Below are positions 8,746-63,875 of a stretch of DNA of 64,000 bases, one piece after another (the first letter of the stretch is position 1; every line of letters begins with the position of its first letter). The position numbers and the translations under genes were made by a program. The notes under the pieces were generated by a model. It ran no database searches, was not told where the DNA came from, and saw only the letters and a program-made list of their open reading frames with translations. This DNA comes from Tubiluchus corallicola (lineage: Eukaryota > Animalia > Priapulida): contig JAQGDQ010000066.1 of NCBI GenBank assembly GCA_030141605.1, positions 660,693-724,692 of the forward strand, given 5' to 3'.

Positions 8746-8827
8746 ATGATGAAAATGATAAGTCAGTGGCTGTTTGTAGTATCTCTTGTTGTGCTGCTAC
8801 TTCATGTGAAGAAATGCATTGGATTAG
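8746..8827 (+). CDS. Exon: start codon and signal peptide MMKMISQWLFVVSLVVLLLHVKKCIGL
   Basis: Acceptor ttatag at 8740, ATG at 8746, hydrophobic core, phase-1 donor gtacgt. Confidence 0.8.
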
Positions 8828-26790: not shown

Positions 26791-26871
<81 letters not shown>

Positions 26872-32800: not shown

Positions 32801-35800
32801 GTATGGCAAAACTTGGGATACTGCCCTAGATCACATAAAAGATATTTTGCTGCTGATACAGAACCTCATCAAAAAAATGGAGACTCGACTCACTCATAAC
32901 GATATTGCTGGTAAGCTAAGTTTATTCAAAATATTTCTTATTAATCACCATGTTTTTAGTTATTGTTTGTTTAACAGGATGAATCTGTAGAATACCGGAC
33001 TGGTAGACAGGTTCTCCAGAGCAAGGACCTTCAGTTTCTTTAATTAGCCGTAGTTGCTCTTTTACTATCGTTCAAACTGAGGTTTACTATACTGTTTGCA
33101 AGTACAATTCCTCTACATTTTGGGCATTTTCATAGTGGCGAGTTGTCTATATGGAGTATAAAGGCAGCTTCATTTTCAAGGTGTTTGTCAAAAGCAGACG
33201 CAGCAAGTGATGTATACCCATAATTGTTCCTGAGGATAAATTTGCCTTGATGTTTATAAGTCATAGTACCAGTTTAGTACTTGTGTGCAGTGCTGTATAT
33301 CAGTCTCTTTGTTGTTGCTGTGTTAAAATGTAGAACATTGAGTTTCTAGCTTCATTAAAATCTTGTTTACAATGATCGTTTTAAAAAAAATTATTGACAA
33401 GTAACTGGTTCAGTGGCAGCTGGAGCTGACATTACTGTTAGTATCTGCTGTCTTGATCTTCTCATGGAAATCTGCCTGCCTGTGCCCATGTCTACAATAT
33501 ATGCAGTGGCTTAATGGGTGTTTAATATCTAAGACAAAACCAAGTGGTACCATTACTATTAATAGTAATACCTTTATTGGATACCTGCTTAATTATCTCT
33601 ATTTATCACTTATTTGTGTTTGATTCTTACCATCAACATTATTCATAATTTAAATGAATAGTTGTAGTGATATAAACACACTATAACATATTGTCTTATT
33701 TGTATGTGGACTATAAATATATTACTGACTGTAATTTTGTCTGTCATTTACTTGTTTCTAGGTGTCTCCCATCTGATACACCTTGCAACGTTTTTACTTA
33801 ATGATTTGAAGCCTTTGGGTAATGAGACAGCAGAGATAAATCAGTTAAAAATAGATGTAAGTTTGTATAAGTAATTTATGAATTGTTGTCGCATGTCATT
33901 GCTTATCTTGTTTATAATAACTTGAATACACTCCTGTTTATTTGACCACCTTATGCTGCAATCAAAATTGTAAAAATTAGCATGTTTGTAAAAGCTCATT
34001 ATTTTTGCAAAAACATAACCATCTTGCCCACTATTGTAAAATCAGAAATTATTACTTTTGTTAAAGAATTACTAGTTTTTGTAAAAAAAAAACTGGGTGA
34101 CTAATTTTGCAAAAATGTTAGCCACTTTTGTGAAATACTCTTGTAAAATTGTTACTGTCTTCATAAAAACTCCTGCCCATTTTTGTTAATTACCAAGTTA
34201 CTGTTTTTTTCAGAAAATTTTATACTTTTGTAAAAACAAGAGTTATCACAAAACACTAATCACTTTTGTAAAACTTACCACTTATATAAGGAATGGTCTG
34301 TTACTCTGTTTGCATGTTAATTTACACCAAACACCAGAACACGCCAGGTAGTGCAGCACAAGCATTGCAAAATCGTGGTGGTATAATTTGGTGCAACATT
34401 TTCTCACCAAATTCTCACCGTGTATGTTGAGATAAACCATTCCCACAAGAGACGGCATTAGTATAAACATTGCAGGAGTCTTGTGATATGATATAAAATT
34501 TTTCAATGTTCGATTTCAAATCTCTGAATCCAAACTTACAAAAATTTTTATTTGGATATAGCCTTAGGTCAGTGTGAAAAATCTCTCCACTAATACTGAT
34601 GTTTTTCTAAAAATAAACACTTTTATTGAAACCAACACTGCAACAAACTTGCCAGTTGGAGATGGTACGTTAGCGATGTCTTCTACTACGAAGCTCAGAA
34701 TTGGTAGCAACCAGGTTTAGATTTATTAATCCATTTAGCACAATACAAAATACAAATTATACAATTACAAATTGACAATGCATTGCTGTGTTATAAGGAT
34801 AGCAGAAGAAATAAACTTAAAAGTTAAGTTGACATCATAATGTAATGAACTAATTATTATGCTATTGTGTAATGTAATAGTTATTACATAACTGTTAATG
34901 AAGCTGACATCATAATTTGGAAGTAACTAATCATATAGAAGGTAAGCTTGTTGCAATTTAAAGCCTAGTGTTCTCGAAAGTGTCCGATTTAAAAATCATT
35001 TATAAGATTCACATAAAGTCAGTACACCTTACAGGCAAAAATAAAAATTGCAATAATAATAAATGAAGTGATAGGACTTTTCCATATCAGAGTGGATCTT
35101 TTAGCAGTAGATGATATAGTGGCTTCTCTGACTGAAAAAATAATGTTTAATTAAAGATTCAAACAGTACTTTTTAAGAGGTACGGTAACAATGTTCTCTT
35201 CTTAAAAAGAGACTAGACTGTGTGACACATGAGTGCCGCTGGTATATCGAACTGTCAGCTGATCTAATGAAAGAAAATGAAGGAAAGCCACATTACCCAG
35301 CTATATCAAATAAAGATAGCGTTCCAAACAAAAGTGTATGACCAATTAATTATGACTATAAAGGTTATCAATGCTGCTAGGCAAAAACTACAACAGTAAG
35401 ATTTTACAAGACTAGCAAAAGTTTTACAAAAGTGGTTATTTTTTATAAAAAGAGTGTTTTATAAAAGTGGCTAATGTGTTTACGAAATTAGTGACTCACA
35501 AGTTTTTCCACAGATGTGGCAAAATTAATAGTGTCTGGGAGCTTTTACAATTTTTACAATTTATGTTGCAACATCATATCACTATATATTTTTGACAGGC
35601 AAATTTTTGAAGTATTTTTGAAGTGACAAGATTTCTTGCATGCCCTTGTTGGCACATGTTGGACAGCTTGCCAAAAACACCTCAAGAGAGGGAAAGACCA
35701 CTGAACGAATTTTTGTAAAAAAACTGTTTGCAAAGTTTCTGCTTTTTTTTCAAAAATCAGTCTGTTATTATTTGTGTTCAGATCAGAAATTCTCTGCTAA

Positions 35801-38800
35801 GCATTTTATCTAATCTGCCAGCATCATCTATTCAAGCTTGGAGACAGCGAGCTGATATGTGGACGGCAAATGCAGGCGAGGATGACCTTAGTGATGCAAA
35901 TGTGAGTAAACACATTCTTATATATCTAGGGTTTTAAAGTTCTTTTTTATGGATTTATCCTACAATAATATGTAAATAATTAATAAGAAAATTACTTCCT
36001 TATTTTTGTTAACTGGTACATCCAAACTAGAAAAACATTTTCCTTACTTCATTCGTTTTGTTATGATTAAGAATAAAATTATTGTTTGTAGCAGCACGAT
36101 GGTCTAATGGTTTTAGTATAGCTGCCTGGAAAGCAGAAGATCTTGTGTTAAGAGTCCCCCAGTGGAGATGCAAAAATTTTTCTTGCTTTCTAATTTAATA
36201 TTTGCTTTGTGCTCTGCATGACTGTTCGTGTTTGAATTTATATTCAACTTGTTTGCAGCTTTTTAAATCTCTTGCCTTTTCTTTACTAAGCATTTAGGAA
36301 TTCTTTTCAAGTTTTTGCCAGGTTCCCGTCACACTTTCTGAAATTATATATGAATAAAATTTCATAATGTAGTCCTTACTTCTTAAACAAATTCATTTTG
36401 AAAACCCTTGTTTTTTCAGAAACAAGCTATAACTAATTTAGAAATTATCGGAAAATTCCTAAAAAAGGGACAAGACGATATGAATATTGAAGAGGCAGAG
36501 GAGTCTGGACAGTATGTACACCTGTTGCTTCACTATAGAAACCTCTCCTATCCAAACATTTTTAATTATATAATATAAAACTAATTTCGAATACATTTCA
36601 GTGTTTGTCTTTGCAAATATACAGGGATGCTATGTAGAGCTTTACTGAAATTTTCGCCTGGAGCTGTTAAAATTTAAAATTGTTCTGTGTCATTGTTGGG
36701 ATCTAATAACAGAATCACTGGGTAACATTGACAGCCTTATGAGACACTGCCATAAGCATACACACAATGGCTTTGTTGACTTCATGTATTAAACATTGTA
36801 TAAGTTTCATAATCTTGTCATGTAGGTACTTTGTCATAAGGCATGGAAGTTGATATTAAAACCATTTGCCTCTGACAACGTATTCTACACCTAAAAGTAA
36901 CACACTATATACTCAGGCATTGAGTCCAGTGATCCTGGAGTTTTTAGTTTCTTTTTTCTTAGTTGATGGTGACTGATCCAGTAATGTAATGATGTATGAT
37001 AGAATTAAAATTAAACATTGACGAGTAGATCATAAATAGATAGAAATTTGCAGCAATTTCTATTCATTTAATTAAATTACTGAAATAATATTAGCTGTGT
37101 ACTAGTTTACCACTTACTAATTTAAATACTGAAAGTGTTTGCCGAGTTTTAATGCAAATACAGTTCATTATACCGTAATTCCAGCTAAAAGTAAATATTA
37201 GCATACCACTGTAACTATGTTACCTGCAAGGCTGTAAGTGTTTAATAAGCAGTAGGTACTTATACATAATTGTTTTCATCTGTTGTGAAACAATGGCATG
37301 CTGATAAGTGGCCAACATATGGTGACCAGAACAGAATCGTGGGTAGTATGACTAGTAATTAGGTGATTAGCTAAGTACATTACGGATCGTCCATTAAGAG
37401 AGTGTGAACTGGGTATTTTATCAATTATGGCAGTGTTCTGGGGTTTGAGACTGGGGAAAATGCCGAAAAAGGAAAATCGATAATTTGAAAGAAGAATTAC
37501 ATTTTATTTTTCGAGTTATTTTATTCGTTTAATAAATCTTTTATTAAATGGGGATTTTACTTGTTTGTTTTCCAAACAGCAAATTTTTGTTTGCCTATCG
37601 GCAACTCTGAAAGCTACTTGAAAATAAATTTTCTGTGAGTATGATTTTCATAAGTGGGGGGAGCACAGTAAAAGACTCTTCTGAATGCAAAATAATCGGT
37701 ACGATCGCACTTGCACCTCTCAAAAGGCAAGAACCTACACCCATTTCATTAGTAAGTAAAGGGGAATTTAGTGTCAGTTAATGAAAAATGGTGAAGGTTG
37801 TAGCTGCAAGTTTTTGACTTGCGTTTCAAATCATCATCAGGCAAAAAAATCATTCTTCTCTGTATGTGTATTTATAATATGTTTATATATGATATATTTA
37901 TACAGAACACATATTTTTGCCATGTATTTCCAGAACTATCCTCAGTGGTATTTCTAAAATATTTGGTGCCTTGGAAAATTCTCCCACAACAGATTCTGAA
38001 GAGGTAAGAGCTGCAAAAATGTTTTATACATTACTCTCTTTCTGCTTAGCCTTAATAAATAATCATCTGTGAACTTTATTTTACAGTAATTTTGTTGGAT
38101 TTTTAGAGATCTTGTATATTTATAATCAGTTTAACATTTTGCATCATACAATCAACCTGACAAAGTTTTATCTGATGAAAGAAGTATCTGCTAGTTGTAG
38201 TGGTGGTATTAGTGCATTCATCTGCAAACACTTTCAAATGCATTACATTTACGTGGTCGCTGCCTGTTCTTTGGGATATTTTAGGGAGTTGCCCATTTGC
38301 CCTTGATGAGTCAGGCTCTGTTCGTATCATGAATATAGTGTTGAGTGGGTCTTGCTGCTGAATGTTTACATCTAAATATATATTATATTTATTATATATA
38401 TATATTATAAATTTATATATTTACACACACACAGGGGAGGAATTATTACAATGATTTTTAATCATAACTTCATGAGCAGCGTGACTGCATAAAAGTAAGT
38501 CATAATACTAAATTTAAACTGTGAAAGTACGTGACTACTAAATTTAACTAGTGAAAGTGCTTGCCAACTAAAATAACCTGTGAAAGTGCTTAACTACTAA
38601 ATTTAACCTGTGAAACTATTTGATTATTAAATTTAACCCAGGAAACTGCTTGAGTTTTGCATGTGATGACGTATCATAGACTGGCAGATCATGCTGAGTA
38701 AAACCATTGAGCTGTTGCAACGAACCTAATGAATTAAGTTATTATTATTTTTTTACTGTGCTACTTATTTGGCTAATGAAATTTCAACTTTATGTTAAAC

Positions 38801-41800
38801 ACTGATAATTTTTTCAACAGGGAAAAGACACTTCTGACAAAACATTTAGTATCATAGACATCATTGCAGAAGTAATTAAAGAAAAGAAAAGAAAGGGCGA
38901 CAATGCAACTGTTATTGAAACAGACACAATAACAGTGACTGTGGACAAAAAAGAAGTTGATGAACTAGGAGGTAACTGTGATTCTCTTGAACTTTATACC
39001 TAATGTGTTAGCATGTGTTGTGTGCTCTATCAAAATTCATGCTCGTGTTTGTAACGTGGAGCTTAAATTTTAAACAGTAGGCATGAAAACTAAAACCATT
39101 ATCTCATGCTCGAGTGCTGGGAGAATTTAAGCTTGTTTTTCTAAGAATTTTTTCTAAGAATTCAGATTCTGACTTGAGTGGTACTGTCATCATTATAGGC
39201 TCTTGTTCAAGGCTCTATGAGCAGATATCACTGAAGAAGGTTAATTGTAACGAGATCTTGTAATTTTGCCATTTATATTCATTATGCTGAAGCCACAGCA
39301 CAATACTGTTGGCAACTTAAAGCTTGGCAGACATCAATGTCTACGCACACTCGTTTATTTTCAAGTGCACCTTTAAAAATTTTTTTAGTTGTTTCGGATT
39401 CTTGATCACTTAGATGTTTCTATTTTTATTTGCAACCTTCTTTTTAGGTTATAAAATAGCAGCTTAGGTTTGGCTAAGTTAGATGTTTTGGTTTGGAGTT
39501 TGCTGCCACTTTTTAGCTGGTCAATATGGCCTCTATTTAAAATTAGATTACTTTGTTAGGCATTGAGTTGATAGTTTTAGACTTCTTGACAGCTGCCATG
39601 AACCTCCGTGAGATTCTAGGCTTTTGTGGTGGCCACAAGTGGTCAGGAGTAAAACATGAATAGCCTGTCTAGAGAATATCTTTGAATAGCTTGCATAGAG
39701 AATATGTTTTAATATTTCTCATAAACAAAATTTGAAATCAAGGTGGGAAAAATAAAAAACTGGGGAAGCATAAGTGTACTACCTAGTTACTTTGTGCTAT
39801 TGATTGTAACATGTTTTGAAAACTTGGTTTTTTATTTTAGATTCTGAAATTGATATGGGAGGTGATGCTGGGCACTTCAAAATACCTCCGGCCGATTTAT
39901 TCCTGAACGTCTCTGCAGATGAGATGATCGAAATTACAGTTGTGTATTCAAGTTTTTTCACATTTTTAGGCATTTATAGCAAATATGTTTGCCGTAGGTT
40001 ATGTACTTAAGTATGGAAGGTAATCTCTGATCAAAATTTTCAGTACTAATTTATTATTCAGAGGACTTTTAAAAATCCAATTTATTTCACTTCATTACTG
40101 CAAAAGTTTATCATTGTTCGTAATAAATTCATATAAGAAAGTGTTTGGTTCAATTGCTAATTCTGCATTTTAGGTTGATTTCGTGTTAGTTGAATATTTT
40201 GTGTGGTCATTTTAGACTCTCTGATTACCTCGTTTTAAATTTAAATTTTATGTTTTATATACACTATTTGTTCAGTTGCTTTTCATGAACAAAAAGTACT
40301 GTAAGCACAATTTTTGGATGTCTTAAATTTTAACGGATTGCATAATTGCTTAGTGTGAGTGAGTTCTTGGAAGGAGTTAACAATTCCCAACACAACTTAA
40401 TAGATTCCCTAATTCCAACTTTCACAATATCGCTAACCCAAACCCTAATCCACTGCACATACTAATTTCTTGTGTGTGGCAAAATATAAGCTTTAGCTAA
40501 ATTCTCAATATTTCCAGTTGGCTACCATTAAAGTAAATCCATATAATTGGCACGAGTCATCTGAAGGTATTAACACCGCTGTGGCAAATCTTGAAATTAC
40601 TGGAGCGAATGGTTCATTGTTGGCCTTTGGTGCGCCAATTCAATTTTTTATGAATTTACCAAGTAAGATATTATTTGTATAGTTATGTATTTTTAGTAAC
40701 AATTGTGATCAAATAATGAATTGTAAGCTTAGTTAAGTAGTTGTCTGCATTATTAGTTTAATTTAATTTAATTTTTTTAATTTAGACTAACTCTTTACAA
40801 CTTTGTATGTGATGTGCTTTATCCCTGTTAAGCAATAAATTTAATTCAAATCCAGATTTTGCCATGATTTAAGATTTTCAAGATGTTTTTTAAAAATAGC
40901 TTGCGTTCAAAAAGTATTACTGACATCAAATTTCGTTAGTTTCTCAGCTTGTCTATAAAAAACTCTGACTGTCTCTGACTATTAGAATTACTTATTGAAT
41001 AAACAACACAACCCATACTGCACCAATCACACCAATCACACCTGTCCACACCACTCCACCATATCACACCCCCCACTCCACACCACAAATCACGTGACAA
41101 CACAAAAAATTGTATTAGAATTGGGTAAATGATTGAAAATCTTTCTTTAAATGCATACTGCAATTTCAATTAAAATTCAGAAATTTAGGCTTTAAAAATA
41201 TGCGGTCTGCAACTAATCTGCATATTACTGCGAATTTCGTGTCCACAAATAGCTATCCGCACAAATAGCTACCTGCCTCAGGTAGTTGAACCTGACTAGC
41301 ACTTTTTCCCGGCAGTCTCCTATCTACTTACACTGTGACCAGTCCGCTATTCCCGTTGCTTCTTTTTGGTGCTGCAAGAAAACTGAAAGAAGAAATAAAC
41401 AAATGAAAGGTATTGATAGATGCATCCCTTTTCTAAGAATTACACTAGTGGTTGTTTAACCTAATCTGTGACATAATTATTTCATTGTTGTGTTTATATG
41501 CAAATTGAAAAAATACTTCTCTTTTTTACAGAAACGAAGGGAGTCGGTTCGTTTTTTGTAAATAACACTGGCACACGGACAGACAAAGATATAACTGTGC
41601 ATAGTATTTATGCCAAGCCACAAAATTACATCATCCTTGCTATTAATGATTTGCCTGACAATGTGACATTGAAGGTAATTTCATAGTGATTTGTTTGGTG
41701 AAACAACATTACCAGTCGTGAAATCGTAACAAATTTGTTTACAGAAGATGTTAAATATGGTTTCTTATTTTTTAATACAAACATTTAACTTACAGATTAA

Positions 41801-44800
41801 CACTCATCTTTTATTTTTCTAAGCAATACCTGGCCTATTTTTTTAATGTAAGTAAATGGAAGTCATTTAATTTTCTGATTACACTTTTTCTGCTTGTGGA
41901 CTTTTGTGTCACATTTTCGAGCTGAGTTGTTCTTTTTAATCACTAGTCCTTCACATTTCTTTTTGCTGCAGATAGCACTGAAGCGTTCACCCCCGGCTAT
42001 TTGGGAACTCGTCTGCCATACCTAAAATAATACTTCTTTTCACTGATATACACTTTTTCTTGGCTGAGTCTTCTTAAACACCTTCTTTGAACTTTGAAAT
42101 TAGAACTGATAGCCACCATGTCATAAGTTTTCAGTTTTCTTCTCTTCTTGTGTCGTACCGCTCTACATGAACCCCAGATTCATCTTAAAGTTGTTAAACT
42201 TTGTAGACCTTTTCAGAAACCTCATTATATTTCAACCCATTAAGTCCTTTTCCTTCCTCGTGTACACTTGTCACACACTTAAGGCACTTGTTTTTCTTAT
42301 TTCCTTTGTGTGCAGCAATAGGTGTTGTGTATGTAAAAAGTTATTTGTAGTCACAGAGTCATGTTAGAAAAATTAAAAATGTTGAAAAGGGTGAGAATGA
42401 ATTACCAGATATCATGCAGTTTGTTGAGTGTACACCTTTAGATTATGTCTGCTGGAATGTTTGATTTTTTCCATAGTATACCAGCCTGGAATTACGTGTT
42501 ATCAAGAATGGTTTCATTTAGCATTTTTGATATAGATTTTGGTTCTTGTTATGCTTTGCAAGAATGTGCTCCAATGTTACAGATTTTACTAAAAGATGGC
42601 AGGCTATTTATACACTCTAAATGCTAAAAGGAAGTTATCAATGCATCAAACTTACAAATCATTCTCCATGTATTTTTAATATGCATCTAGAACTGATATA
42701 TAAATTCAACAAGTTTTCTATCAAGCAAGTGTCTGTTGTAATAGGGTTTGTAAAGGGAATTTGATAATTGTTATTTTGTAAGAACTGCATTGTTTTGTGT
42801 ATCAAGGGTATGATTATGCATAGGTGTGCATGCTTATATGCATATGCAAGTGTGCATTGTGATCATTTAGGTTACGTGCATTGTCTTCATTATGTATCAA
42901 GTTTTTCTTTCCAGGTATATGTGTGGGTGTTGGTAGCTCACCTGATAACAACTTGCACACATGTAGTGAAGTAGGGTTTTTACTGGTTTAATCATTTTTG
43001 TGTTGGGTTGTGCCATTGATTCTGTCTTGATTAGTTTCTTGCATGACAGTAATTACACATGATGCTAAATCATTAGCCTTTAATTTACTTTCAGGTTGTG
43101 TTAAAAAAGCATGAAAGGCCTACAGTAGCCGACTTTGAAGCTGATGCTGATGTGTTCCACCTTCCTGTGCCTCGTGAAGATCCATACTCTTCCGAGTTGC
43201 CCGATAACATCCTCAGCTTTCGCAACACTAAAGACACGGCTATTCAATACTTTGTTGGATTTTTATTTGATTCGTACTACACTCCGCCTTGTCATAAACC
43301 TTTGCTGGTGTGTAAAAGTGAAGCCCAGGCTTGCTTAGCTAATTTTACATGTAGTATAGTGGTTGATAATCAGACGTGCGCTAGACTTGCAGATGAAGCA
43401 TGCAGTGTTGATGCATGCATGGAGAAACAGCCATGTTATGGTGACTGGGTAGAACACTGCATGAATGTGTCTTTTAGGTGCATAATGAAAGAGCGGCGTT
43501 GTCGAAAGCCAGTAAACTTTGAGTGTGAGACAGCCTATTATGGTTGCCTTGGTAACTGCAGCAGTGAAAATAGCACGTGTAAGGAAGACTGTTTCTTAAG
43601 CAGGGCAGATTGTTACAAAGGTGACGAGGATGATGATGACAGCGATGATAAGGCTGAACCATGTTATTCAGTGAGTGATTGCATTAATAAGACAGATGCT
43701 GCTTGTAATGAAACCTTGCACCGTGAAACTGATAGAAGGCACTGCAGATACATGTACGCAGTGTGTGCTCATGAGTTCATTGGAAACTGCTCCGCCAAGC
43801 TCTCTGCATGTCGCAGTAATTGCACATGTAACGAACCGCCTTGTGACTCTGCAATTAGATCAGATTGTGTGGAACAGTGCATGTCTGAGTACCGCTTTTG
43901 CACCGCATTTGTTGCTGATACGTGCGTAAAATTTGTCCTCAGAAGCGATTTGTTTTGCGGAACTATTTGGTGGGAAGAGCGTTCTCGTAACAATGCTGTC
44001 AAAAACAGTGAAACAAATGTGAGGAGTTTAGATGAAGTCACAAAAGGTAGTATGTCTACTTTTGTATTAAATATGAAAGAGTATACAAATGTGTGCAATT
44101 TCTGTGGCAGTTACATATGCAACACTGTAGACAATGATAAGTGTGCAATGTATGATAGTTCTATGTTAGAACTCTGTTGCTACACTAACATCTTTTACTG
44201 CACATTTATCCTTTTCACAACCTAAACTGCTTCCATGTGTATATGCTGTAATGTGGCTTTTTATTATTACATTTTTGCTTTTAGATAAATTGGAAATACA
44301 AACCAAAATGAAAAAAACATTTTTCTACACTATAAGCTGTGGAAACTGATTGAACCGAAAAATACACATCAGAATTCTATATACTTTGCATTGAATTAAT
44401 ATACCAAAAACAACTATTTTTTAAGTGCCCGGGTGCTTGAAGTGAAAGATATCCTAAGGTATGATGTGTTAACGGGGGACTATCACAAAAATCAAGTTTA
44501 ACTCATGTTGTCATTGCCTTACCTATGGACAGCTTGAGAATAATTTTTTTGTAATACATGTTGTCTAATTAATGAGTAATTAACTTTTTTGTATCCTGCG
44601 GGAAACGAAGGGAGCGGTGTTTATGCCTGTCGCTTTGAAAATATTGAACTAATGCAGCTCCTGCTAATGACATCACAGACAGTGAACCCCACACTGAGTT
44701 GCAACAGTTCTATACACATCTGGGCTGTAAATAACGCTGTTATTTACTACATTACACACTGATAATTTCAGTACTTGCATTGAGTCGGATAGGTTGTCAG

Positions 44801-47800
44801 CTTATAGAAATGACTGTCATTGTGCCCATTCACATGATTTGTTAATGAGTGATACTTTTACAACCATGCCAATAAAAATTCTTTTAATTTTCAGCACTTC
44901 TCTTAATGCTTTTTTGTTGAATGCACGGTATCTTGTAAGTCGCTATACACTATACATTTTTTCACATTTTTTTAACAAAGAAATCAAAATGTTCGAAGAT
45001 TGGTACAGATGAACTAAAACCTTGGGCGATTCTTTTAGTCAAATTAGTTAAAAATCTGGAAGGAATTAATGCACTGATAGGTTTTGCTATTTTCACTACC
45101 TTTTACAGGCATTAGCTTGCAATGAGCCTCTCACATCCCATGAGTGGTGAAACACAGGTGCTGTTTGTTGAAAAACTACATTGTTAATAGTGAGAGAATT
45201 AGTTTGGTTCATATGGTGCTCTGTCTTTCTAACGAGCTTCAGTTGGTAATTGAAGGACTTCTTGCCAGGCTGATTTGGCACCTCATTTCTAACCTACTAT
45301 TATTGCCCTAGCAATGGTGTTCCAATCAAAAAATAAAAAGAATTGCCATAGGCCCTTTTTTTATTCATGTTAAAACTTGCTGAGATTGGAGAAAGAATTT
45401 AAAAGAAAATTATAAATGAAAATGTTTAGTGACATTTGAGACACCTGGTCACACCTTATACTTCATGTAGTGTTTTAACTCAAAGTTTGCATGATATATT
45501 AATCACAGAGTGGTCAGCAATGTTATAAAAGTACTATAAGCTTGTTGTTTGTCTTTGTAGATTCAGTGCTTGTTAAATACCGAATTGGTACTGTAACAGC
45601 AGATGTAGCTGATAGTGGTACCAGTGCAAGTGTATATGTCATTATACATGGCAGCCACGGGACAACAATTAAAATGATGCTGGATAATTCTGCCAACAAT
45701 AATGAACGTGCTGGGTACGTTTACTCTGTAAATTGTGTAATAGAATTAACTCGTTTGTATCTAAGAACTTGGGTATTGTGAAGGTATTGTGATGCCGTTG
45801 TTGATATATTAAAATCAATCAAAATGTTTTCACGGCAACCTTTAAATTATTTACAAAACTTGAATTTCATAAAACCTGGTATGTTGATATGAGATTATTG
45901 TTGTAGATTATATAAAGTTTGAAATACCTTCTTTTATAAAACTGCAAGTCCTTCAGAGTGTAGATCTTTTAATTTGTAATCAGTTTTAAAAAATCTTAAG
46001 AATTAGGGCTTGTGGAATAACAGTGTACTTGGCTGCAATAATTAAGCAGAGGCTGAAGCGTCGCTTACCCTGGTTAGTGAATAGTTGGGTGAATGTTGGG
46101 TAATTTGTACAGTTTCGTCAACTATACTGCCTTCAGTTATTTCGCTTGCTGAAAGATCATGTATATTGTTATTGGAAAATCAACCCTTTCCAAATTAGTA
46201 AAATAGACATTGCTAATTAAGCGCTTGTATATGTGCTGTGTAAAGTCAAATAGCAATAATAAACTGCTTTGAATTTCTATGTAAGTTCACTCTGTGTAAG
46301 CGCTCGTGGCTATAATGTCGCCTTTCTTTCATTTAGATTGTGTACTTAAGGTCACCTGCATGTGTGCATGGGTAACGATGCTTTTTTGGTTTAATGTATG
46401 AACAACTCGTCTATAAAACTAAAGTGTGACCTATTGCCTGTGACCTCTTTCTTAGCAGGTACCTGAGAAAGCAGGTCTATCTGCCCTTATTCACAAATAC
46501 AGGCATTTTTCACAAATCATAATGTAGGCCTGTATTTTATAAATTATTAGATAATTTAGTGATGTGAATTTTGAAACAATTTTATTGTGATTTGATATTG
46601 CTTGGCTTGTCAAATTAAATTTCCAGTGTAATTAACGTGCAATAGCTGAAAATCCAAGCTTTGTGAAGAAAAGAAATACATTGTTATTGTGGCCACATTT
46701 TTGCACAATTTCTTACTGTTTTTCTAATGACTATTGTTTGACTAATCAATTGTTCCACAGCACAATTAATACAAGTCTCAGGTGCGAGCAAATCAATTTG
46801 TTCAGTACACAACCTGGATGTATCTACCGTAAGTTCTCTCCCGCTAAGCTAATTTATAAACTTATCAAGTTCTTCTAAATAAATTCCAAGTTCAAACACA
46901 TTTTTCGATAATTATGTGTAAACCATGGTTCACTTTATAGGTTCAGGTGTTTATGTTGAAAGGTTTTCTGGTTCAGGCACTTATCTTCGATAAATTACTG
47001 GACTTCTGTCTCAACTTACGTTTAAAAAAGGAAACCAATATTGTTTTAATATCAATTAAATATGTCTTTGATATGTGAAATTTGAAAACCCTTACCTGCT
47101 TTCTTTAAATGTTCATTTAATTTTATAAAAGTTATGTATGATTTGAGAAGGAAAATGTAGCATTTGAGACTGTCCTGAATGTCACAATATGGGAGGATAA
47201 CAGATCCTTTTGTTCATGTTCAAAGGAACAGTTCCTTCGTGGTTATTATATACTACTCGTTATCCCGTTGTAACTACTTGTAGTGTGGTAATAAATCTAT
47301 TATTTGTGAAAATTTTATCTTAATTTTTCATTGTCATTGGACAAAACGTTTCATAACTGTTGCAGTTGCTTGCACTTGATGTTGCTGGATGTCCACAAAA
47401 ACCTGTTTATTTACCATAACCTTAAAAAAAACGATGATTTCATTAGCTGGTATTAGTTGGTATTTTGTATTGTGCCATCTGTCCTGTACAAAAAGAAAAT
47501 CACTATACTACTTTTGTTTGATTGCATGTGCTGACAAGAGTTGTAATTTAGTAATCATCAAATATTCTTCATTATTTTGTCACAGTTACCGTTACAATAA
47601 TATGTTTATTAATGTTTAATAAAAATACATAAACTTAAGTAGCTAAGATTTGTAAAATGTTTAGCTTACACGATCCTGAAAGACGCAGTTTAGCTTACAC
47701 GATCCTGTAAGACACAGTTTAAACATCATCCTCATGCTTCAAATATGTCTTTATTAAATGATATTTCACCTCTACAATCTTTGCTGCTTTTACAACTCAG

Positions 47801-50800
47801 TGTCCTTAAATGAGGTCTTACAGTACGAATACAATGTTGTTAGATTTTAAAAACCTCATAGATAATTAGCAAGTATCACTAAGTTACAGATGCATATGCA
47901 TTCCACTGGTAGTGATCAAACTGAACGAGCGCACCACACTGATAGAAAAGATGTGTTTGGTAGTAACACTTGTTTTGACCGCCAATTATCAGTGAACACA
48001 TGAACTGGTTTCTGGCATGCTATATTAATACGCAGTGGATATTTCTTTGATTTCACCAGTTAGTTAGATAGATATTTAATATCAGACTTTTTTATAATTT
48101 TTTTGGTTAATTGTTTGATGCTGGTATATTTTAGCCAATTAGTTTTTTATTTTCAGAATTGATTGGTTTGAGGAGGAAAATGTCGCAGTTGGGACCATCC
48201 TGAATGTCACAATATGGGAGGATAATTCAGGATTGGCTCCCGACTGGTTATTGGAAAAGGTAAAGCAAAAAGCAAAAACGTGTGTTCGTTGGCGAGATAC
48301 ACGAATTTATCTATCAAAGAAATATCTCTAAAGTATACTACAAAGTAATGAACATAATTGTCACTTTGTATGAAGCTGTTTGATGGATGATAATATGTAG
48401 GAGCTAGTTCATTATTAGTGGTCTTTTGCTATGATTGTATACCACTAATCTTCTGGGCGTAACTGTTTGTAGTGTGTTAGTCAGTGCATCTATTATTTGT
48501 GAATATTTTATTTTGGTTTTTCATTGTTGTCGGGCAAAGCCTGTACCTGATTTACACTGAACGCTGTTAAACGTTCAGGAAAACATGTATTATGCCACCA
48601 GCTGCCAAAAAACTAATGATTCCATTTACTAGACAATTTGTTACTTTGTGTGGTGTCACAAAACTAATTGAAATTTTGGTGTAGTGTTTCTGTGACTTCT
48701 GTGACATCTGTGCACTTGAATAATTCCTTTGGACGCTTCAGAATTTTATTAGTAATTTTTTGTATCTTGAATATGAATTTTGCACATGAGCAATTTGTGT
48801 ACTTGTTTTGCTTATTTTAAGTAAATACGATGCATTTAAGTGCAATACAATGTACGGAACGCATACATTAGAATATGATGCTAAGTCATTGAAAAACACA
48901 AACATTTTTATGAAGCTTCGAAATCTAAACAGTACTGCTGCTGTAATGATTGTTAGATGGATGAGTTATTGATAAGTGTTACTTAAATTCACATCAATGA
49001 TTAAAATGAACTACTTTGCAGCATTTATGTTACAAATTTTTGCACTTTTTTGCAATTAATACAGTAAGTGTTTATATCCTAACTTTTTAGCTGCAGCTCT
49101 TAGTATTTTTAAAATAGTTTTCAAATGAAGTGTGTTGTATTGCAGCCACATGATCACAGTCATCATTATAAAAAAATTGATATTAATTATTATATTGAAA
49201 AAAAATTACAGGTGTTTATGTTAACTGCATCAAATATCTTGGCCAAGGATTGCAGTTAAAGTGTGTAATTATCAAAGTGTTTTTTAAAAACTGAAAAACA
49301 TACTCTGTTTTATTTGCTATGCTGAATCTGGTTGTTTACCTTGTAAAAGGAGGATATATATATATATACATTCAAATGTGGCTGAGATACTTCTTCGGAA
49401 TCAGTGACTTAGCCTTGATAATGAGGTTTTTGTCTTGACACAACCACTCACAGTATAAGTAGGCTGTGTCATTGAATGTTGTATTCTGGCTTGCAGTTAC
49501 TGAATTGTATAAAAAAATTTGTAATGGTACATTTGCTGTTGCTTTGTTCAAGTATCAAATTCAAAAGCTTAACACGTACACAATTCAGCTGTAAGGTTAA
49601 TTACTCACTGTCAAAAATTCGACTATGTCATTCCAATATTCAGAGAATTGCACTTGTTCCCAACTGAGTGCATAATAAAATTTAAAATAAATTTAATAAC
49701 TTACAGAGCGATCAATGGTGTTTCACTTATTTACATATCAGACCTTCTCAAGCCATATGTTCCTTGCAGAACATTAAAATCTATCTCAAATAGAAGTGAT
49801 CTTAAAGTCCCACTTGCCAGGCTTGTCACTGCCCTTAGACTGTGGAACTCTTTACCAATGCAATTATGCCAGATGAAGTCACTTGGCAGTTAAAAAAATT
49901 GAAAACTCCCTATTTTAGTGAAGCTTTTTGTAATTAAGATAATTGTGCCTAGTCTGTGTTTGTGCATGTTTTGTAGCATTGCCTTTATTATTTTACTATT
50001 TTTTTCTGTGCTATGATTTCTTTCTTTTTTTCATATTTAATTTACTTTTAATCACTTAATGTGCCTTGGTCTTAGATGTCTTATGAATTCATTTTTTAGT
50101 AATTTGATAGTCTTTTACTTTTTTAAATCTTCTGTAAAATGTAATCTTCATGTAAACTGCATTAAAAATATTTCATAAAATAATTATTATTAATTGTTGC
50201 TGATTCTTGTTGTTTAGTATGTATTGGATGTAAGTAGTAAACGAATGTGATGATGCGCTGGCAGTGATACATTAAGATGAAAATGTCATATTGTTTACAT
50301 TTCAGTCTAACTTTGTTCTTTTATTTCACTAGCTGGTGATAGAACTTGGCTACTTAGTCTACACATGTCCATGCATGAAGTGGTTCGACGGAGCTCCTCG
50401 TGAAAATGCGCAGACATTTCCCTGTTACCTCAAAGCAAATAATACTCCACCAGGTATGAGTTTAGTAGTTAAAGTAATACTGATAAATGTTTTCTTATTA
50501 GTGTGTTAGTTAAATGATGAGTTAAGCAAATTTATAAGGTTCAGTGGAGGAATTTTTTTTAAAATTATTTTTATGTAATTTACCCAGATAGGTTCCCTAA
50601 TAGTAGTACTTTTTTCACCAGTCAGATAGTGGGATAGCAAATTGTCTAGGTTGGTCCAACACAACCAGGGCAATTTTGAGCATTATCCAATTTGCAAGTA
50701 CAAATGAAATGAATAGGATAAAAATAAAAAAAGAGAGATTCCCACATGTAAATATAGGTATATTAATGACGTCAGCATTATTTTCACTGTCTTTTCCACA

Positions 50801-53800
50801 ATGTGTATTTTACAAAATATCAAAAGATTATGTCTTGGTAAAAGATTTATGTTTTTGATCCGGGCATTTAATAAAAGGGAACAAAAAATCATCATTAATT
50901 TTCCATCACTGATTAAAAAAATTTATACCAAAAATAATGCAGAGAATGCAACCGTGTTTGCAGTCGTTATACAAATTATTTGAAAATTCCTCCATACCTT
51001 TTCTGCGGGATGAGGAAGAATCTTGTATGAACTAGGTTAACCAGTTGTTCAAAGTTGTGTAAACTAAATGTTGCCAATTTTGTACCAACATGGTGACAAT
51101 ATTTCCTGAACATATTTTTTGTCGATTTTGGCAAGATCGTGACCACATGGTGACAATATTGTATGCTGCCTGGGTAGCTGCTTGGATGGTCTTGGAAAAA
51201 TAAGCAAAGAAAGAAATAGTCCATAGGGTGTATATAGTAAGTGTTATCGTCATTATCATCACCTTCTTCATCATCAGTTATAACATGCTCTAGTTACATC
51301 TGTGTAATTTGGTAACTACTGTATTAATAAAACTGAAAATTGTGCTCGTTCAGTATCATTAAATATGTCCTTGATAACCAGCTTTTGTACTTTACCTCTT
51401 AGTGTTTTGTTATCTTAAATATTTGTGACTGTAACTTGTGTGTGATGTTCCTTCTGTTTGCGAGGTATTTCTTTACAAAAGTAAAGCTCACAAATAAAAC
51501 TTTATATTTATTTTGTTGTTTTCTTTCTCTTCATATATTTTGCACATTTGGAAAGCGTTTTTGCAAGTTTGTAACACCAGATTACCTGTGCTAGTGGTGA
51601 TAATGAAAAATTATTTCTAACATTTTACTGAAATATGGTGCATGAGTTGGTGCCATGATTGATATTTTAAACAAGTTTCTTCATACGAAATTTCCAACAT
51701 GAATTCCGTAATGCTACCACATTGCAGAGGTAAATTTGTTTTGTTTCAGAAAAACTGAATGTAGTGCCGATCAACTTTACTGTCGGTTTTTATAATTCCC
51801 GTTGCGTGTATTGGGATGAGAAAAAGGAGGAGTTTAGAAGTGAAGGATGTTTGGTATGTGTCCTTATAGCCCCAAACACTTTGAATGGCAACCATTTTTC
51901 AGAAAGGAATGATTTTCAAATTATTATTAAGTCATACAAATGAATTTAGTAAAGCCGTTCTTGGCACTTTGATGCTATATGATGTGTGCACAGTAAATTC
52001 TTAATTATTAAAACACGATTTATCTCATGTCTGTGTTGTAATTTTGAACTTTATGTAAATTACTGGTTTATTACTGTAAACACAAAGTTGAAGGTCTATA
52101 CATTTGAAACAGCAGTTTCATTACATTGTTACATCAGTTTCAGCATGTATTCAGTCTAATGCAATTTTGACTATATATGACTATTAATTAATTTTTGTTA
52201 ATTCTGATACGCAAGTTTCTTGTAAAGTTGTAATTAGTAAATTTTTGCCTGATTTTTAATTTCTGCTAAATCAACCACAGGCAGCTAGTAGCTGATGATT
52301 ACTTATTTACATAACCAGGCTTCTGTTGATAGAAACATTAGTCACAGCAATTTCTGAACTATGAAGGCTTATAACAGCAAACAGAACCAAACTCACATTT
52401 ATTTCATAAAAATAAGCAATTTGAACTACTTTTGTCTTAAAACGTGTTTATGTTGTAACTATTTCTAGTTATTTTAAGTTATATTGAAATGAATTTTTGT
52501 TAATAGGTGGGACCTCTTACGACAGAAAAAAGAATGCACTGTGTGTGTTATCACCTCACTGCTTTTGCTGGCAGCTTTCTTGTAATGCCAAACGAGATAC
52601 AACCATTTGAAGAGGCTGAATTGTTTTTGACTTTTTTCGACAACCCTGTAACAATACTGCTAGTTGTACTGATTTGGATAATTTACTTTGTTTTGCTTGT
52701 GTACTCATACAGAAAAGATAAAGCAGACACCTCAAGGGTAATCATTTTCTATTCTCGAATGTTGTTCCAGGCTAGGCCCGGAGGTGGCTGTGTTTATAGC
52801 TAACAGTTAGTTCTTTCTTTCTGTCCGTTTATTTGAAAAACTGTAAATGAATTTTCATGATATTTTAAGTAAATGAGGAAAAGTTTAGAGAAATGCTGAA
52901 TGTTGCTGTGAAATTGCCAAAGGTGTTTAGGTGTTTAATGCCACTTGATATTCTTATTCATAACTGATATTTTAGTGAACCAGTTTTGCAAACTATACTC
53001 CTGTATCTGCTCTTTGCAAGTCAAAAGTCATATTTTGTGGTTTTAGTGTGAACCTATCCAGCAGTGCTTAAAGGGTTTGTAGTTAGTTATGAAAATGCAA
53101 ATTACCCAAGATTTCTTTATACCTAAAAAGAGTCAAATGTATATGTTTTGTTATTTTTTAATTTATTTAAATTTAGGGAATAATTTCTATGAAAAAAAAT
53201 TGCACAAGTATAAACAAATTTATAAATTTACGTAAATGTTAAAATGTTCACCATCATCATCGTACTCCCTTTACATCTATTTACAGACGGTGAATGGGCA
53301 ATTTTTAGATTACTAGTTCTAATTTTGCTTCATTTCGATGGATACAGTAAATAGTCACTGTAACAGACAGGGCAGTTGCTCTATTGATATCTTCTGAAAT
53401 TAGCATTTTCGATTTTTGTTGGCAGGTTGGTGTGACGATACTTGAAGATAACAATCCACATGATAAGTATGTTTATCTTATCATCACTTATACTGGAATC
53501 AGAAAAGGTGCAGCTACGACCGCTACTGTCACTGTAGTGATAAAAGGTATAGTACATTCAATGAGGACAGCTTGCTGAAATTGTCTTGTTTTTTTTTAAA
53601 TGTTTTTTTAATGTAGCATTTGTTGTAATATGAAAATTGCAAAACATGTGCTTCATTTTGCATGTTATTCTTAATTTTACACGGCTGGCACTTACTAATT
53701 AGATCCACCAGAAGAGTGTCGTAGAGAGTTTTCGAAAAATAGGCATCTTGAATTTTGCCTATGTAATTTGTAAGAAATATGCCTATTTTCACGATGTGTC

Positions 53801-56800
53801 ATACCAAATCTTGTTATGAATAAATTTTCACCACACTCTGGATATGAAAAAAGGCTTCAAACTTTATGTAAATGTCAGCTCTGAGTTGTTTTTGTCTGCA
53901 AATGAATGAAATAGTGCAATTGTTACCAGTTCAAAAGGTTATCCAAGGCTGCTCATATCTGTTCTTTTTTGTTTGGTTACCCGTATTGCTTGTATATGAA
54001 CTCCGCATTGTTTCTTTTCTTTGACCAGTAGGTTGGATACGTACAACATTTTTTGTATTCATTTGTCCTGCTATTTCATTGGTCGTGTTATCAAAATTAT
54101 GTAGAACTTGTTAAAGATTGGTGACCCACTCCTTTAAGTTTGGGAGTAATTTAGACAAGTTACGTCATTGGTTGACAAAGATTTATTTCTGCTCTAATGT
54201 TACAAATTTCTGTATTTTTTCTAGGTACTGATGCTAATAGTCCTCCAACCATTTTGACTGATAAAAATAGGCCTATCATGTGTGCTGGAGCTCAAGACTG
54301 GTTTCTGTTGCTAACACAACATTCACTTGGTGATCTAACATCTATTGTTATTTGGCATGACAATTCGGGAAAGCATCCTTCCTGGTAAGGTTTGGAAATG
54401 GTAGAATAGAAAGCAACACAATAGCCCTGAGCAAAAATGAGTGCAAAATTTTTTTCAGAAATCTGATGGAAAAACTCATTACTGGGCATACTTTACGAGA
54501 AGTTGAAGCACATGATGAGGAGTCAGCAACTTATAAAAGGTTGTAGAGATCAAGTAATTGTTAACCAGTTCAAGATTGCTGATAATCATCATAATAAGAA
54601 CAAACATTCGCAACTAAATCTTTCTAAACCGAAAACTGTATTTCCTAAAATACTGAAGTAGATTTTTGGTTTAGAGTTCACTTTGTGGTGTGTGGTTGAT
54701 CAAAAATATCTGAAAGGTAATTTCAGTATGAAGCTTTTGTGGTGTTTAGTTTATCAAATGTGTCTAAAAGCTAGATTTAGCACTTTTAGCACAATGTTTC
54801 AGGCATCTACACACTTATTTGTAAGTAAGGAGTGCTGTTGCTTATAGAGTGCAGCTGCACCACATTAATTTAAGCTCTCTTATCACACTAAGTGCATATC
54901 CTTTAGGTTCTTGCGAAAAGTCGTGATTACAGATGTACAAGATGATACCTCCTGGGTTTTCTTGTGTAACAAGTGGCTGGCCGTTGATCGTGGACTGAAA
55001 ACAGTTTATTATGAGCTGTATCCAGCTAAAGAGAGCACGCTAAAGGTAAAATAAAAATTTAAGAATAGCAAAACTATGAGCTTAGTTATCTAATAATTAC
55101 TTGTACCATAGCCATTTTTGTATTTAAAGTTGCTTAATAGATTTCCAATAAAAATAATGAGGTCACTGGTGGTATATTTTTATTATCTTGTGTGTATTTG
55201 TTAGCAGATATCATATTGTTTCCATTGTGCCACACAATTCGATCCTTAGCTACTCTCCAAGATGAATATTTTTGAAAATTACTGGTCTTTTGTCTGAGGT
55301 GGTGCAGACCAGTTGCTGACGTATAGTTCGTTTTCTAACAAAGTTACTGTTTTCCTGCTTTTGTGTCCACCTTTTTCCATTGCTGTGTCAGTAGCTGCCA
55401 TGTTTGTTCTGTAGTGGTTCTTATAGCACGTAATGGTATGCTTTGGTCTTCTTGTAATGTTGCCAAGAGAGCAGCGGAAAGTGTCTGTGAATTGGCACTT
55501 GCTGATTGTTTCTCCCAGCACTCATAGCACTTCTCTTTTTTCCTTGTGAAAACCTGTTTTTAGCCATTTTCTTATGATGAGTCCATACAGCCTTACAAAA
55601 ATGTACCTTGTTATATATTTGCCGAGTGCACTTGGTATATTTGGCGTAGTGCATAGTGCTTTAACTACACACAGTTAAGTGCTATTAAACTTGTTTTAGT
55701 ATTGTCTATATAGTACTGTTAGCTAGTACCATCGTATGTGGGTAATTGTTCAATGGTCATGGAGTTTTATTGGACACCAAACTTGAGCAGTACTCAGTCT
55801 GATCAGTAAACTGAATGTGATCGCTGAGAAAACTGCACCTATGACATTTCTTTTGTTGGAACAAATCATATGGCTGCATCTTTACCAGTTCATCATGCCA
55901 TCTTAGTTCCTTGATGAGTCCCTGACTCCCAGTTGTTAAACCAGGATTGATTTACATTTCTCACTATCTATGAATGTCTTTAACACAGTGAACCTGTGGC
56001 TCACATGATATTGCTCTGTTATAATGCATGTGTAATTCTTGCAGAACTCCTTTTGCACCACAACCATTCCACAACCGTTGATTGATGGATTCCAGCTTAC
56101 CGTGTGCTAAATTGTATATTATTAAATACATAAATAATGCAAGTAAAATGTCTTGTACTAATTATTTTAGTTGCTTATTGCAGTATGAAAATTTAGTATG
56201 ATCACTTTTTGTATGTGTAGGGCTTTGTTCACCTCTTTTCAAATAGAACTTTGGAGGATTTTCAAGACGGACACTTGTGGCTGAGCATATACTTGCGACC
56301 GCCTCACAGTAAATTTACCAGAGTTCAGGTAGGTAGTTTTAATTTGCTATCAGGCTATATTTTGTTTGCGTGACAACCATCGAGTTGTAGACACTATTCA
56401 GGTTTTCCTTGTTGATATCTGTTTACACATTTAGGCCGAACACTATTACATTTTTGTTTGTTTATTGTTAGTACTATATGGTTTTTGCTTCCCTGGGATT
56501 TATATGAATTTTTCTAAAGTTGTGTGATGTTTTCCATAGTTGTGTAATTTGCATGTATTTTCTATTTCAAACATTTTCAAAATGTATAAATCTTTTATGA
56601 TTTCTATTACCGTTTTAACATTTTCAGAGATTATCCTGTGCTTTATCACTTTTACTTACCATGATGCTTGGAAACATCATGTTTTATGGCATTCCGACTG
56701 ATGACCCTGAAGATCAAGCTGAGGTGGCTGTTCTAAAATTTTCCTGGTCTCAACTTTCTATTGGTACATATTCTTACTAACATTAATGATGTGTAATTTA

Positions 56801-59800: not shown

Positions 59801-60095
59801 TTTTATGTTAAAACGGATTCTATTGTAATAGTAAATGGCATTCTAAATAACATCGTCATGAAATGGATTCTGTTGCAATGCTACATAGCATTCTAAACGA
59901 CACATCCGGGCACTTGGGCAGAGAAAACTCAGTAAGTGTGTGACCCAATGCTTCACATTCTGGACTAGCTATTTTTTCGGCTAATTAATAGACTTGGTGA
60001 ACTAAAATACTGGTTTTTCATTTTTTAACTATCATTCCAATTGTCATTAAGAATTGCCTCCATATTATCATACGCATTTATTTTCAACCCACATC

Positions 60096-60162
<67 letters not shown>

Positions 60163-62299: not shown

Positions 62300-63875
62300 G
62301 TAAGTCAAAATTAAAAATGTCTTTATGATTATATACATTGTTAACAAAGTTTAATAAGCAAGCTAACTAATTGATTTCCTTGCAAACTAACATTTTTAAA
62401 CTGTTGATTTGTTTTTTAGAAATGTTAATGGACAAGAAAAGGGGGTATCTGAAGTAGGTTTCAGAAAAATCGCCTCAAAAAAATTATTACTTTAAAGCAA
62501 TTTTATACATATGTCATTTATGCAAACGTAAATCAGGGGAAAAGGCAACGTTAAATTATGTCCGAAAAAATTTCCAATGAAAATCTATATTACTTAGCAT
62601 TTTGCTTACCTGCTGGAAAGACGTAAGTTACTAGAAATAATAATTTAAAATGTTCATGCCAGTTAGTAAAATGTCGCTGGCTCACTCTCCAGGTTGCGCC
62701 ATTTACTAAGCAAAAATGTCTTTTTAATCTTATTGGCAGATACAGTAATGTAAAATTTTACTTAGTAACACATGTGCTACGAACGTTCTGATTTCTGCAA
62801 TGCAAACTTATCAAACAGGCTACCATCAAAATGGCTGCGCCTAATGGTCATCGCAGGAGTTTAAATTTACATGCTTTATGCAGTATTACTGCAGACGAAA
62901 GACCTGCATGAAAAAGGCAGTATGTAAGTGGTATAAAATTTCAAGACGAATTTTTTAAGCTTTATGTAAGTGAGGGTTTTCTTGTGCTTTAAACTTAAAA
63001 TGAACTTTCAAACCAGACAGAGTATAAAAATCATAGAAAATTATTTATAAAAACAGCAAATACACTGAAAATGTTCTCATTTTCAAAATGCTTGGAAAGT
63101 CTATCATGTATTTCTGAAGTCCAGTCTTTATATGCTTTTTTCTCTAGACATATTTTTTAGTTATAGGCATTTAATTAAAATCAGCAAGACTGTAACGTTT
63201 CAATGTCTTGATAAACAGCTGTGTTCTGTAAGATAGCACAACGTATATCAAAAAGTTATGGATCTAGTCAAGCTTGATTTGTTTAATTATTTATAAATAT
63301 TACGCTACTATATTATTACAGTTGAAATAGGGTTATATTTAAATAACTGATTCATTCACAGTGTAGGATAGTACAAATTGTGCACTAATTTCTTGTTCAT
63401 TTGAATTATAACATTACTGTAGTTACTACTTGACAGACCAATAATTAAAATATATGGTATTTATACTACTACTAGTATGTGCAGTTTAGTTTATTTGTGA
63501 GCCAGCATCTATAAAAATGGACTGCTCAAGCTCTTTAGTGTCAAATTACACCTTTTGAAAGCCTCAGAATTATTCCGGCTAAAATTTTTATTGCAGCTCA
63601 TATGCACTGTAATGCTAACTTATATACATAATTATATATATTATATCACTTGGTGTTTAATTTACAACAGTATTGTGTGAATAATTAAATAACTTTACAA
63701 GAGCGACTTTGTACAAAGTTAAAGTTTGTTTTTAAAATGAAACAAATATTTTTGTATTATTAAACCACAAATTAAATATAAATTGACCTAAAATATACTT
63801 ATTAAATTGAACCATGTGTACACAGTCTAACTGCTTGCGTCGACAATGACTATTCAATTGCGATTTAGTTATGAT

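Follow-up and report, generated by a model that had tools for sequence, protein, structure and literature searches.

A predicted polycystin-1-like receptor of the priapulid Tubiluchus corallicola with a cysteine-rich segment and a second PLAT domain inserted in a GAIN loop

Introduction

Receptors of the polycystin-1 (PC1) family, which include human PKD1, PKD1L1-3 and PKDREJ, sea urchin SpREJ3-6, and the PKD1-like proteins of cnidarians and molluscs, share one order of domains: a signal peptide, REJ, GAIN with its GPS motif, the first transmembrane helix (TM1), PLAT, and further transmembrane (TM) helices. The PLAT of this family is described as always intracellular (PMC1934368), and the architectures in the accessible portions of PMC4890752, PMC8846589, and PMC12980990 each name a single PLAT. 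Here, we analyze a gene with the same order from the priapulid Tubiluchus corallicola, encoded in a stretch of 64,000 nucleotides (hereinafter, the window; assembly GCA_030141605.1, contig JAQGDQ010000066.1, positions 660,693 to 724,692, forward strand). In this gene, a Cys-rich segment and a second PLAT domain are predicted to be inserted in the GAIN domain, on the extracellular side of TM1.

The GAIN domains of polycystins differ from those of adhesion GPCRs in carrying an extra nine-stranded sandwich, subdomain C, between strands S9 and S10 (Seufert et al. 2025, PMC11697300). According to the main text and the legend of Suppl. Fig. 3 of that work, S10 is uninterrupted through both sandwiches, and the tethered-agonist extension is embedded as the last strand; C is found at S10.47 and W at S10.50. 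According to PMC11697300, an experimental structure of a polycystin GAIN was not available, and the nature of the stimulus that activates PC1 (a ligand, a force, or the two together), like the way in which the stalk becomes exposed, is treated as an open question (PMC9672506).

Results

The window contains one large plus-strand PKD1-like gene with the order signal-Ig-Ig-EGF-REJ-GAIN/GPS-TM1-PLAT, followed by more membrane helices. All splicing of this gene was predicted from DNA. The strand QYFVGFLFD (43245-43271) lies in exon 43095-44046, ahead of the Cys-rich segment; the three exons of the inserted PLAT come next, and exon 51750-51853 restarts with the strand VPINFTVGF, which is followed by RCVYWD. 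Exon 52507-52737 encodes CVCYHL/TAFAGSF (the slash marks the cleavage site) and then TM1. The exon coordinates given in a first-pass annotation of this DNA (44046-45561-48157-50333-51750) proved exact: all junctions are AG/GT, the phases match, and one open frame runs through them. The insert, estimated there at about 380 residues, measures 380 residues from PPC to EKL and 389 residues between the two anchor strands.

The inserted PLAT exons have phases 1-2-0-1 and canonical AG/GT ends, and their product comprises 118 residues. Scored with a splice-site matrix derived from 29 further exons of this gene, their acceptors rank 3, 1, and 28 among the 355 AG sites of the interval 44100-51700, and the donors rank 12, 5, and 1 among its 527 GT sites. 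A strong phase-1 donor near the start of the insert that would restore a short loop was sought and rejected, the best candidate scoring 4.1 and the modelled donor 7.0. The open frame, the splice ranks, and the PLAT alignments described below all support the two-PLAT architecture put forward in the first-pass annotation, with a second PLAT predicted before the GPS and the canonical one after TM1. A two-PLAT protein is very probably made, at least as one isoform.

Judged by its sequence, the extra PLAT is real and aligns as a whole domain, close to the PLAT/LH2 size of about 120 residues, to two other PLATs. It shares 35 of 118 positions with the gene's own cytoplasmic PLAT (z 9.1) and 36 of 118 with the PLAT of L001, a related metagenomic locus (z 10.2); in each case, the score was reached by none of 1000 shuffles. 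The Pfam PLAT profile (PF01477) matched exons 1 and 2 in order, both below the curated cut-off, and gave no match for exon 3. In PDB sequence searches, the best match of exon 2 was the polycystin-1 PLAT, although weak (E 0.073), and nothing meaningful was obtained with PLAT exon 1, the GPS exons, or the TM4-5 exon. Derivation of the inserted PLAT from the cytoplasmic one by recent duplication was considered and rejected: 83 of the 118 positions differ, and the internal introns lie at different places, those of the cytoplasmic PLAT matching L001. Given these intron places and the identity of only 30%, the inserted PLAT is not a recent within-gene copy. Its flanking phase-1 introns would fit the pattern of a shuffled module.

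The inserted PLAT contains 15 D+E and 8 K+R and is net acidic, compared with 11 and 12 in the cytoplasmic PLAT, and has two N-glycosylation sequons (domain plus linker), compared with none. The acidic charge and the sequons would suit the extracellular side. Some of the acidic residues appear to occupy positions that we take to be those of the Ca2+ ligands in lipoxygenase PLATs. About 1 kb upstream of exon 2 is a decayed tandem copy of this exon (Table 1), which was rejected as an alternative exon: it is truncated and has a stop codon at a Trp position, whereas the modelled exon 2 is intact. A decayed copy (72%) of the third exon of the cytoplasmic PLAT, with its acceptor, was observed at 61579-61687.

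The Cys-rich segment that follows QYFVGFLFD is 259 residues long and contains 32 Cys and 9 sequons. The spacing between consecutive Cys is 7 or 8 residues in 17 of the 31 gaps, vs 3.3 at random (0 of 20,000 draws). Such spacing is that of one face of a helix. A single-sequence AlphaFold2 (AF2) model of 43506-43955 was all-helical (mean pLDDT 59.9), and, with low confidence, we read the segment as putative disulfide-stapled helical hairpins. Pfam searches with the segment and two sub-pieces identified no family, and phmmer with the Cys exon against 1.84 billion representatives returned no hit at E 0.001. Word-index searches, which covered proteins of up to 2000 residues, whereas members of the polycystin-1 family are usually larger, confirmed 0 of 894 candidates of 556-2000 residues and 0 of 461 of 174-555 residues for the Cys exon, and 0 of 148 for the GPS/TM1 exon. 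With the Cys exon, ESM Atlas gave no usable match, and a metagenome scan gave 0 of 134; an exact look-up gave 0 of 3, and Foldseek no match at E 0.001. The best VIA-align Z-scores, 6.2 for the whole Cys exon and 9.3 for the helical fragment, correspond to generic helical hairpins.

Part of the Cys-rich segment could be compared with a relative. A contig from run X2, which we took by guess to be an RNA run, aligns to 43434-43671 (86% identity, a single in-frame insertion of 3 nucleotides). Across 60 interior codons, 13 synonymous and 14 non-synonymous differences were counted, and none of the eight Cys was changed. The resulting dN/dS of 0.17 (pS 0.41, pN 0.094; Fisher p 6e-5) rests on 27 of the 33 contig differences, those near the contig ends being hidden. 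This low ratio indicates that at least the compared part of the Cys-rich segment is under purifying selection in the receptor frame. A contig from the DNA run X1 over approximately 43397-43613 (72 codons, 12 Cys) shows few differences and a word depth of 243, compared with 7-20 for the eight longest X1 pieces, although word depth is not copy number. There are hints that this stretch is multicopy, with many near-identical copies elsewhere in the genome.

Another X2 contig skips introns 38971-39841 and 39938-40518 at GT..AG, with 15 differences in 223 letters. As this contig lacks two modelled introns, X2 carries spliced transcripts, either from a close relative or from a paralogue. The PLAT and GPS exons had no X2 cover at 85% or 80% likeness, which is evidence neither way.

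We also compared the gene with L001 and L002, metagenome-contig loci of the same invertebrate PKD1-like subfamily and the two confirmed among 180 candidate stretches in a scan with the GPS/TM1 exon. L001 extends from the GPS to the membrane part, short of the insert region, whereas L002 spans it. A single L002 exon (761-992) encodes the equivalent strand, a 28-residue loop with two Cys, and the strand leading to C-x-Y-W-D. Between the same anchors, the window gene has 389 residues and four introns, and L002 has 28 residues, no intron, and no PLAT. In anchored global alignments, the downstream flank is identical to L002 in 41 of 110 positions (z 22.9) and the upstream flank in 28 of 107 (z 4.3; 1 of 3000 shuffles with BLOSUM62, 5 of 3000 with BLOSUM45); the upstream flank is the top-scoring one among all equal-length windows of the 1188-residue model. 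Because both flanks are collinear with L002, the insertion can be assigned, by comparison with this one relative, to a defined loop. The first-pass annotation had described this loop as normally short, in agreement with L002. The two-Cys mini-loop of L002 is a possible seed of the 32-Cys segment, which may have grown from a native loop of this kind within its own exon.

RCVYWD fits the S10.47 C/S10.50 W pattern, and five residues separate the end of the insert from the long strand entering this motif. By this pattern, the most likely place of the insert is the final loop of subdomain C, just before S10. The strands of subdomain C were assigned by sequence pattern, the structure models covering single exons. 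The claim that the insert lies inside the GAIN domain therefore requires a refinement based on the topology in PMC11697300: it stands for the extended polycystin GAIN, between strands, but not for the core sandwich shared with adhesion GPCRs.

The remainder of the gene shows the features of the polycystin-1 family: REJ together with a signal-like first exon, a GPS with HL/T before TM1, and a PLAT directly after TM1. The N-terminal model comprises 9 exons and 573 residues without stops, and the 22-exon model at 31907-58567 comprises 1188 codons, likewise without stops; phases were left open for a few exons between 26600 and 31906. Candidate extra exons at 41972 and 42587 were rejected because of stops in the required phase. 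The Pfam REJ profile matched exon 25439-25558 (E 3.6e-6, 26.3 bits, cut-off 25), and the Atlas REJ cluster score of 0.90 was obtained with another exon. The two halves of the GPS profile matched successive exons, each under the Pfam cut-off, and the four GPS Cys and an intact HL/T motif are present; autoproteolysis itself is predicted. The GPS/TM1 exon is 48% identical to L001 and 42% to L002, with shared exon borders. The cytoplasmic PLAT (53459-55024) is identical to that of L001 in 45 of 122 positions (z 19.5), with introns at matching places, and its best PDB match is polycystin-1 (E 0.014). The gene continues towards or past the window end; the window stops after about TM5, before any channel half.

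Table 1. Predicted features of the PKD1-like gene in the window
Feature	Positions	Strand	Evidence
First coding exon, predicted signal peptide	8746..8827	+	ATG, hydrophobic run, phase-1 GT donor
Exons of two Ig-like domains and one EGF	11673..21972	+	Pfam I-set E 8.9e-5; Ig_3 E 0.0075; EGF E 2.9e-5 (exceeds curated cut-off)
PKD-like/REJ exons and N-terminal GAIN region	23833..41674	+	Pfam REJ; Atlas REJ cluster 0.90
GAIN subdomain C strands (predicted), up to strand before insert	43095..43271	+	L002 alignment with exon 41532-41674
Cys-rich insert, 259 residues	43272..44046	+	32 Cys, 9 sequons; same exon as GAIN strand
Inserted PLAT exon 1, phase 1-2	45561..45714	+	Pfam PLAT 1-41, E 0.0048; acceptor rank 3/355
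Decayed tandem duplicate of inserted-PLAT exon 2 plus following intron	47139..47345	+	88.7% over 62 nucleotides, 78.8% over 80 nucleotides
Inserted PLAT exon 2, phase 2-0	48157..48259	+	Pfam PLAT 59-82, E 0.18; acceptor rank 1/355
Inserted PLAT exon 3 and linker, phase 0-1	50333..50453	+	Completes PLAT alignment; donor rank 1/527
Predicted extended strand S10 and first GPS half	51750..51853	+	Pfam GPS 2-21, E 0.0092; L002 alignment
Second GPS half with HL/T site, stalk, TM1	52507..52737	+	Pfam GPS 28-43; L001/L002 identity
Canonical cytoplasmic PLAT, three exons	53426..55045	+	L001 alignment; PDB match to polycystin-1
Exons of further membrane helices, TM2 to about TM5	56221..62300	+	46% identity over 149 residues with L001; translations

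The window also shows an Ig-Ig-EGF arrangement N-terminal to REJ (11673-21972), which is not among the polycystin architectures in the accessible portions of PMC1934368, PMC4890752, PMC8846589, and PMC12980990. Introns of the gene contain a broken hAT-family transposase on the minus strand of intron 1 (9703-10907; Pfam Dimer_Tnp_hAT E 2e-10) and an imperfect palindrome of 140 nucleotides, 76% self-complementary, that resembles a miniature inverted-repeat transposable element (18901-19040). Short Cys-containing open frames on the minus strand of an intron at 55279-55560 resemble, by eye, a transposase remnant.

Discussion

The reading that we favor, with a probability of roughly one half, is that the 389-residue insert would serve the GAIN domain as a binding handle outside the cell and would ease exposure of the stalk. 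Under this scenario, a PLAT of other origin would have entered as a symmetrical phase 1-1 exon cassette, and the native two-Cys loop would have grown into a Cys ladder. The GAIN domain would fold round the looped-out insert and cleave itself at HL/T, with the insert retained on the outer, N-terminal fragment. There, the putative helical arm and the acidic PLAT could bind a lipid surface, the matrix, or a protein partner; PLAT domains are described as lipid- and protein-binding (PMC8051682). Binding or pull would place S10 and subdomain C under strain, and the stalk, loosened in this way, would tune signalling by the membrane fragment, along the lines of the tethered-agonist model proposed for PC1 (PMC9672506).

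Several observations weigh against this reading. The dN/dS comparison spans 60 of the 259 codons of the Cys-rich segment and no PLAT codons, and an AF2 model of the whole Cys exon agrees on helices in the second half but has strands at pLDDT <50 in the first. The likeness of the upstream flank to L002 is modest (z 3.7-4.3 in global alignments, not significant in local alignment), pairwise BLASTP of 43095-43283 with the L002 exon gave no alignment, and the short-loop comparison involves one locus only. An X2 contig starts exactly at the 43095 acceptor, and its 93 upstream letters match neither the modelled exon nor the intron; the last 30 of these letters agree with the modelled exon at 9 positions and include an in-frame stop. 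At least one related transcript is spliced otherwise than modelled at this point. The unmatched letters may come from a paralogue whose upstream exon differs or from a non-coding leader, or the contig may be chimeric. Finally, the cassette 45561-50453 is symmetrical (phase 1-1), and joining 44046 to 51750 keeps the frame, a property of the PLAT exons that was overlooked in the first-pass annotation.

A possible alternative, to which we attach clearly less weight, is that the insert serves as an accessory for binding or adhesion, or as an aid to trafficking or folding, without coupling to the stalk, the loop being permissive for domain accretion. GAIN loops are often longer than 50 residues (PMC11697300), sea urchin SpREJ7 has 428 foreign residues within REJ (PMC1934368), and the ectodomains of polycystins vary widely (PMC1934368, PMC4890752, PMC8846589); the first two points also count against a dedicated handle. 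A two-Cys loop, moreover, is already present in L002 at the equivalent place. However, the insert lies five residues from the strand predicted to enter the GPS core, in the subdomain that contains the stalk extension, where mechanical coupling would be hard to avoid if the insert binds anything.

The symmetry of the cassette bears on an unlikely alternative, namely, that the three PLAT exons are optional, often or always skipped, and that the two-PLAT form is minor or tissue-specific. That PLAT exons were copied locally on two occasions in this gene (47139-47345 and 61579-61687) also speaks for it. Against it, the six splice sites all rank with the strongest in the interval, and the PLAT frame is unbroken across the three exons, in contrast to the decayed duplicate of exon 2. 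Strong splice sites and an intact frame make permanent skipping unlikely; regulated skipping would still be possible. It is very improbable that the model is wrong altogether and that the stretch is misassembled, contains a nested gene, or is a chimera, now decaying, between a polycystin gene and a repeated Cys-rich element. The word depth on the Cys stretch may indicate a repeat, the loose X2 end at 43095 misfits the model, and the genome is a single unverified assembly. Against this, the Cys-rich segment shares an exon with GAIN strands, 22 exons join in an open frame of 1188 codons, the flanks are collinear with L002, the dN/dS is 0.17, and none of the PLAT exons brings its own start, stop, or leader.

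The binding-handle reading can be taken one step further, to a proposal that we regard as doubtful. The last loop of subdomain C would be an evolvable site of ligand recognition, carrying a disulfide-stapled helical arm and a shuffled extracellular PLAT, diversifying among paralogues (at which transcribed relatives of 86-94% identity and the high-depth Cys stretch hint) and switchable by in-frame exon skipping. Any partner bound to the arm would pull directly on the strand and the subdomain caging the tethered agonist. If so, this gene would provide a natural receptor showing where and how a polycystin GAIN opens. The module of about 390 residues marks a site in a GAIN loop, near the cleavage site, that appears to tolerate a large insertion. 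This site could be useful for placing tags, binders, or force handles in human PC1 to probe stalk release. The predicted second PLAT also breaks the rule of thumb of an exclusively cytoplasmic PLAT, on which inferences of membrane topology are based (PMC1934368).

Comparison with known systems

Full-text searches of the literature, figures and subscription papers excepted, found no description of a PLAT within or before the GPS region, consistent with the absence of any known precedent noted in the first-pass annotation. The main-text passages of PMC11697300 that were accessible and the legend of its Suppl. Fig. 3 describe no domain inserted into subdomain C, and in the accessible supplement of PMC6294549, the PKD1 alignments are trimmed and do not display the insert loop. 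Public annotations may contain proteins of this kind that have drawn no comment. The arrangement is apparently an undescribed rearrangement of known parts together with one Cys-rich segment.

Among the closest known systems, the loci of the L001/L002 subfamily resemble the window gene in the GPS/TM1 exon (42-48% identity) and in the introns of the cytoplasmic PLAT, whereas the L002 loop is short. As in the subdomain C of PMC11697300, a run of predicted strands comes after the core GAIN strands and ahead of an extended S10 leading to C-x-Y-W-D. SpREJ7 also has a large insertion, of 428 residues, in an ectodomain module, but this insertion is in REJ, and no PLAT is reported in it in the accessible portions of PMC1934368. 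In adhesion GPCRs, a seven-helix bundle directly follows the GPS, whereas the window gene has TM1, PLAT, and polycystin-type helices at this place. The PLAT/LH2 domains of lipoxygenases, LOXHD1, and secreted lipases belong to the same fold family as the inserted PLAT, which instead is predicted to be embedded in the autoproteolysis module of a receptor. Extracellular PLATs are carried by secreted lipases. Compared with the polycystin-1 family, with which it shares the overall order of domains, the window gene adds a predicted extracellular PLAT before the GPS, a 259-residue segment with 32 Cys in a GAIN loop, and N-terminal Ig and EGF domains.

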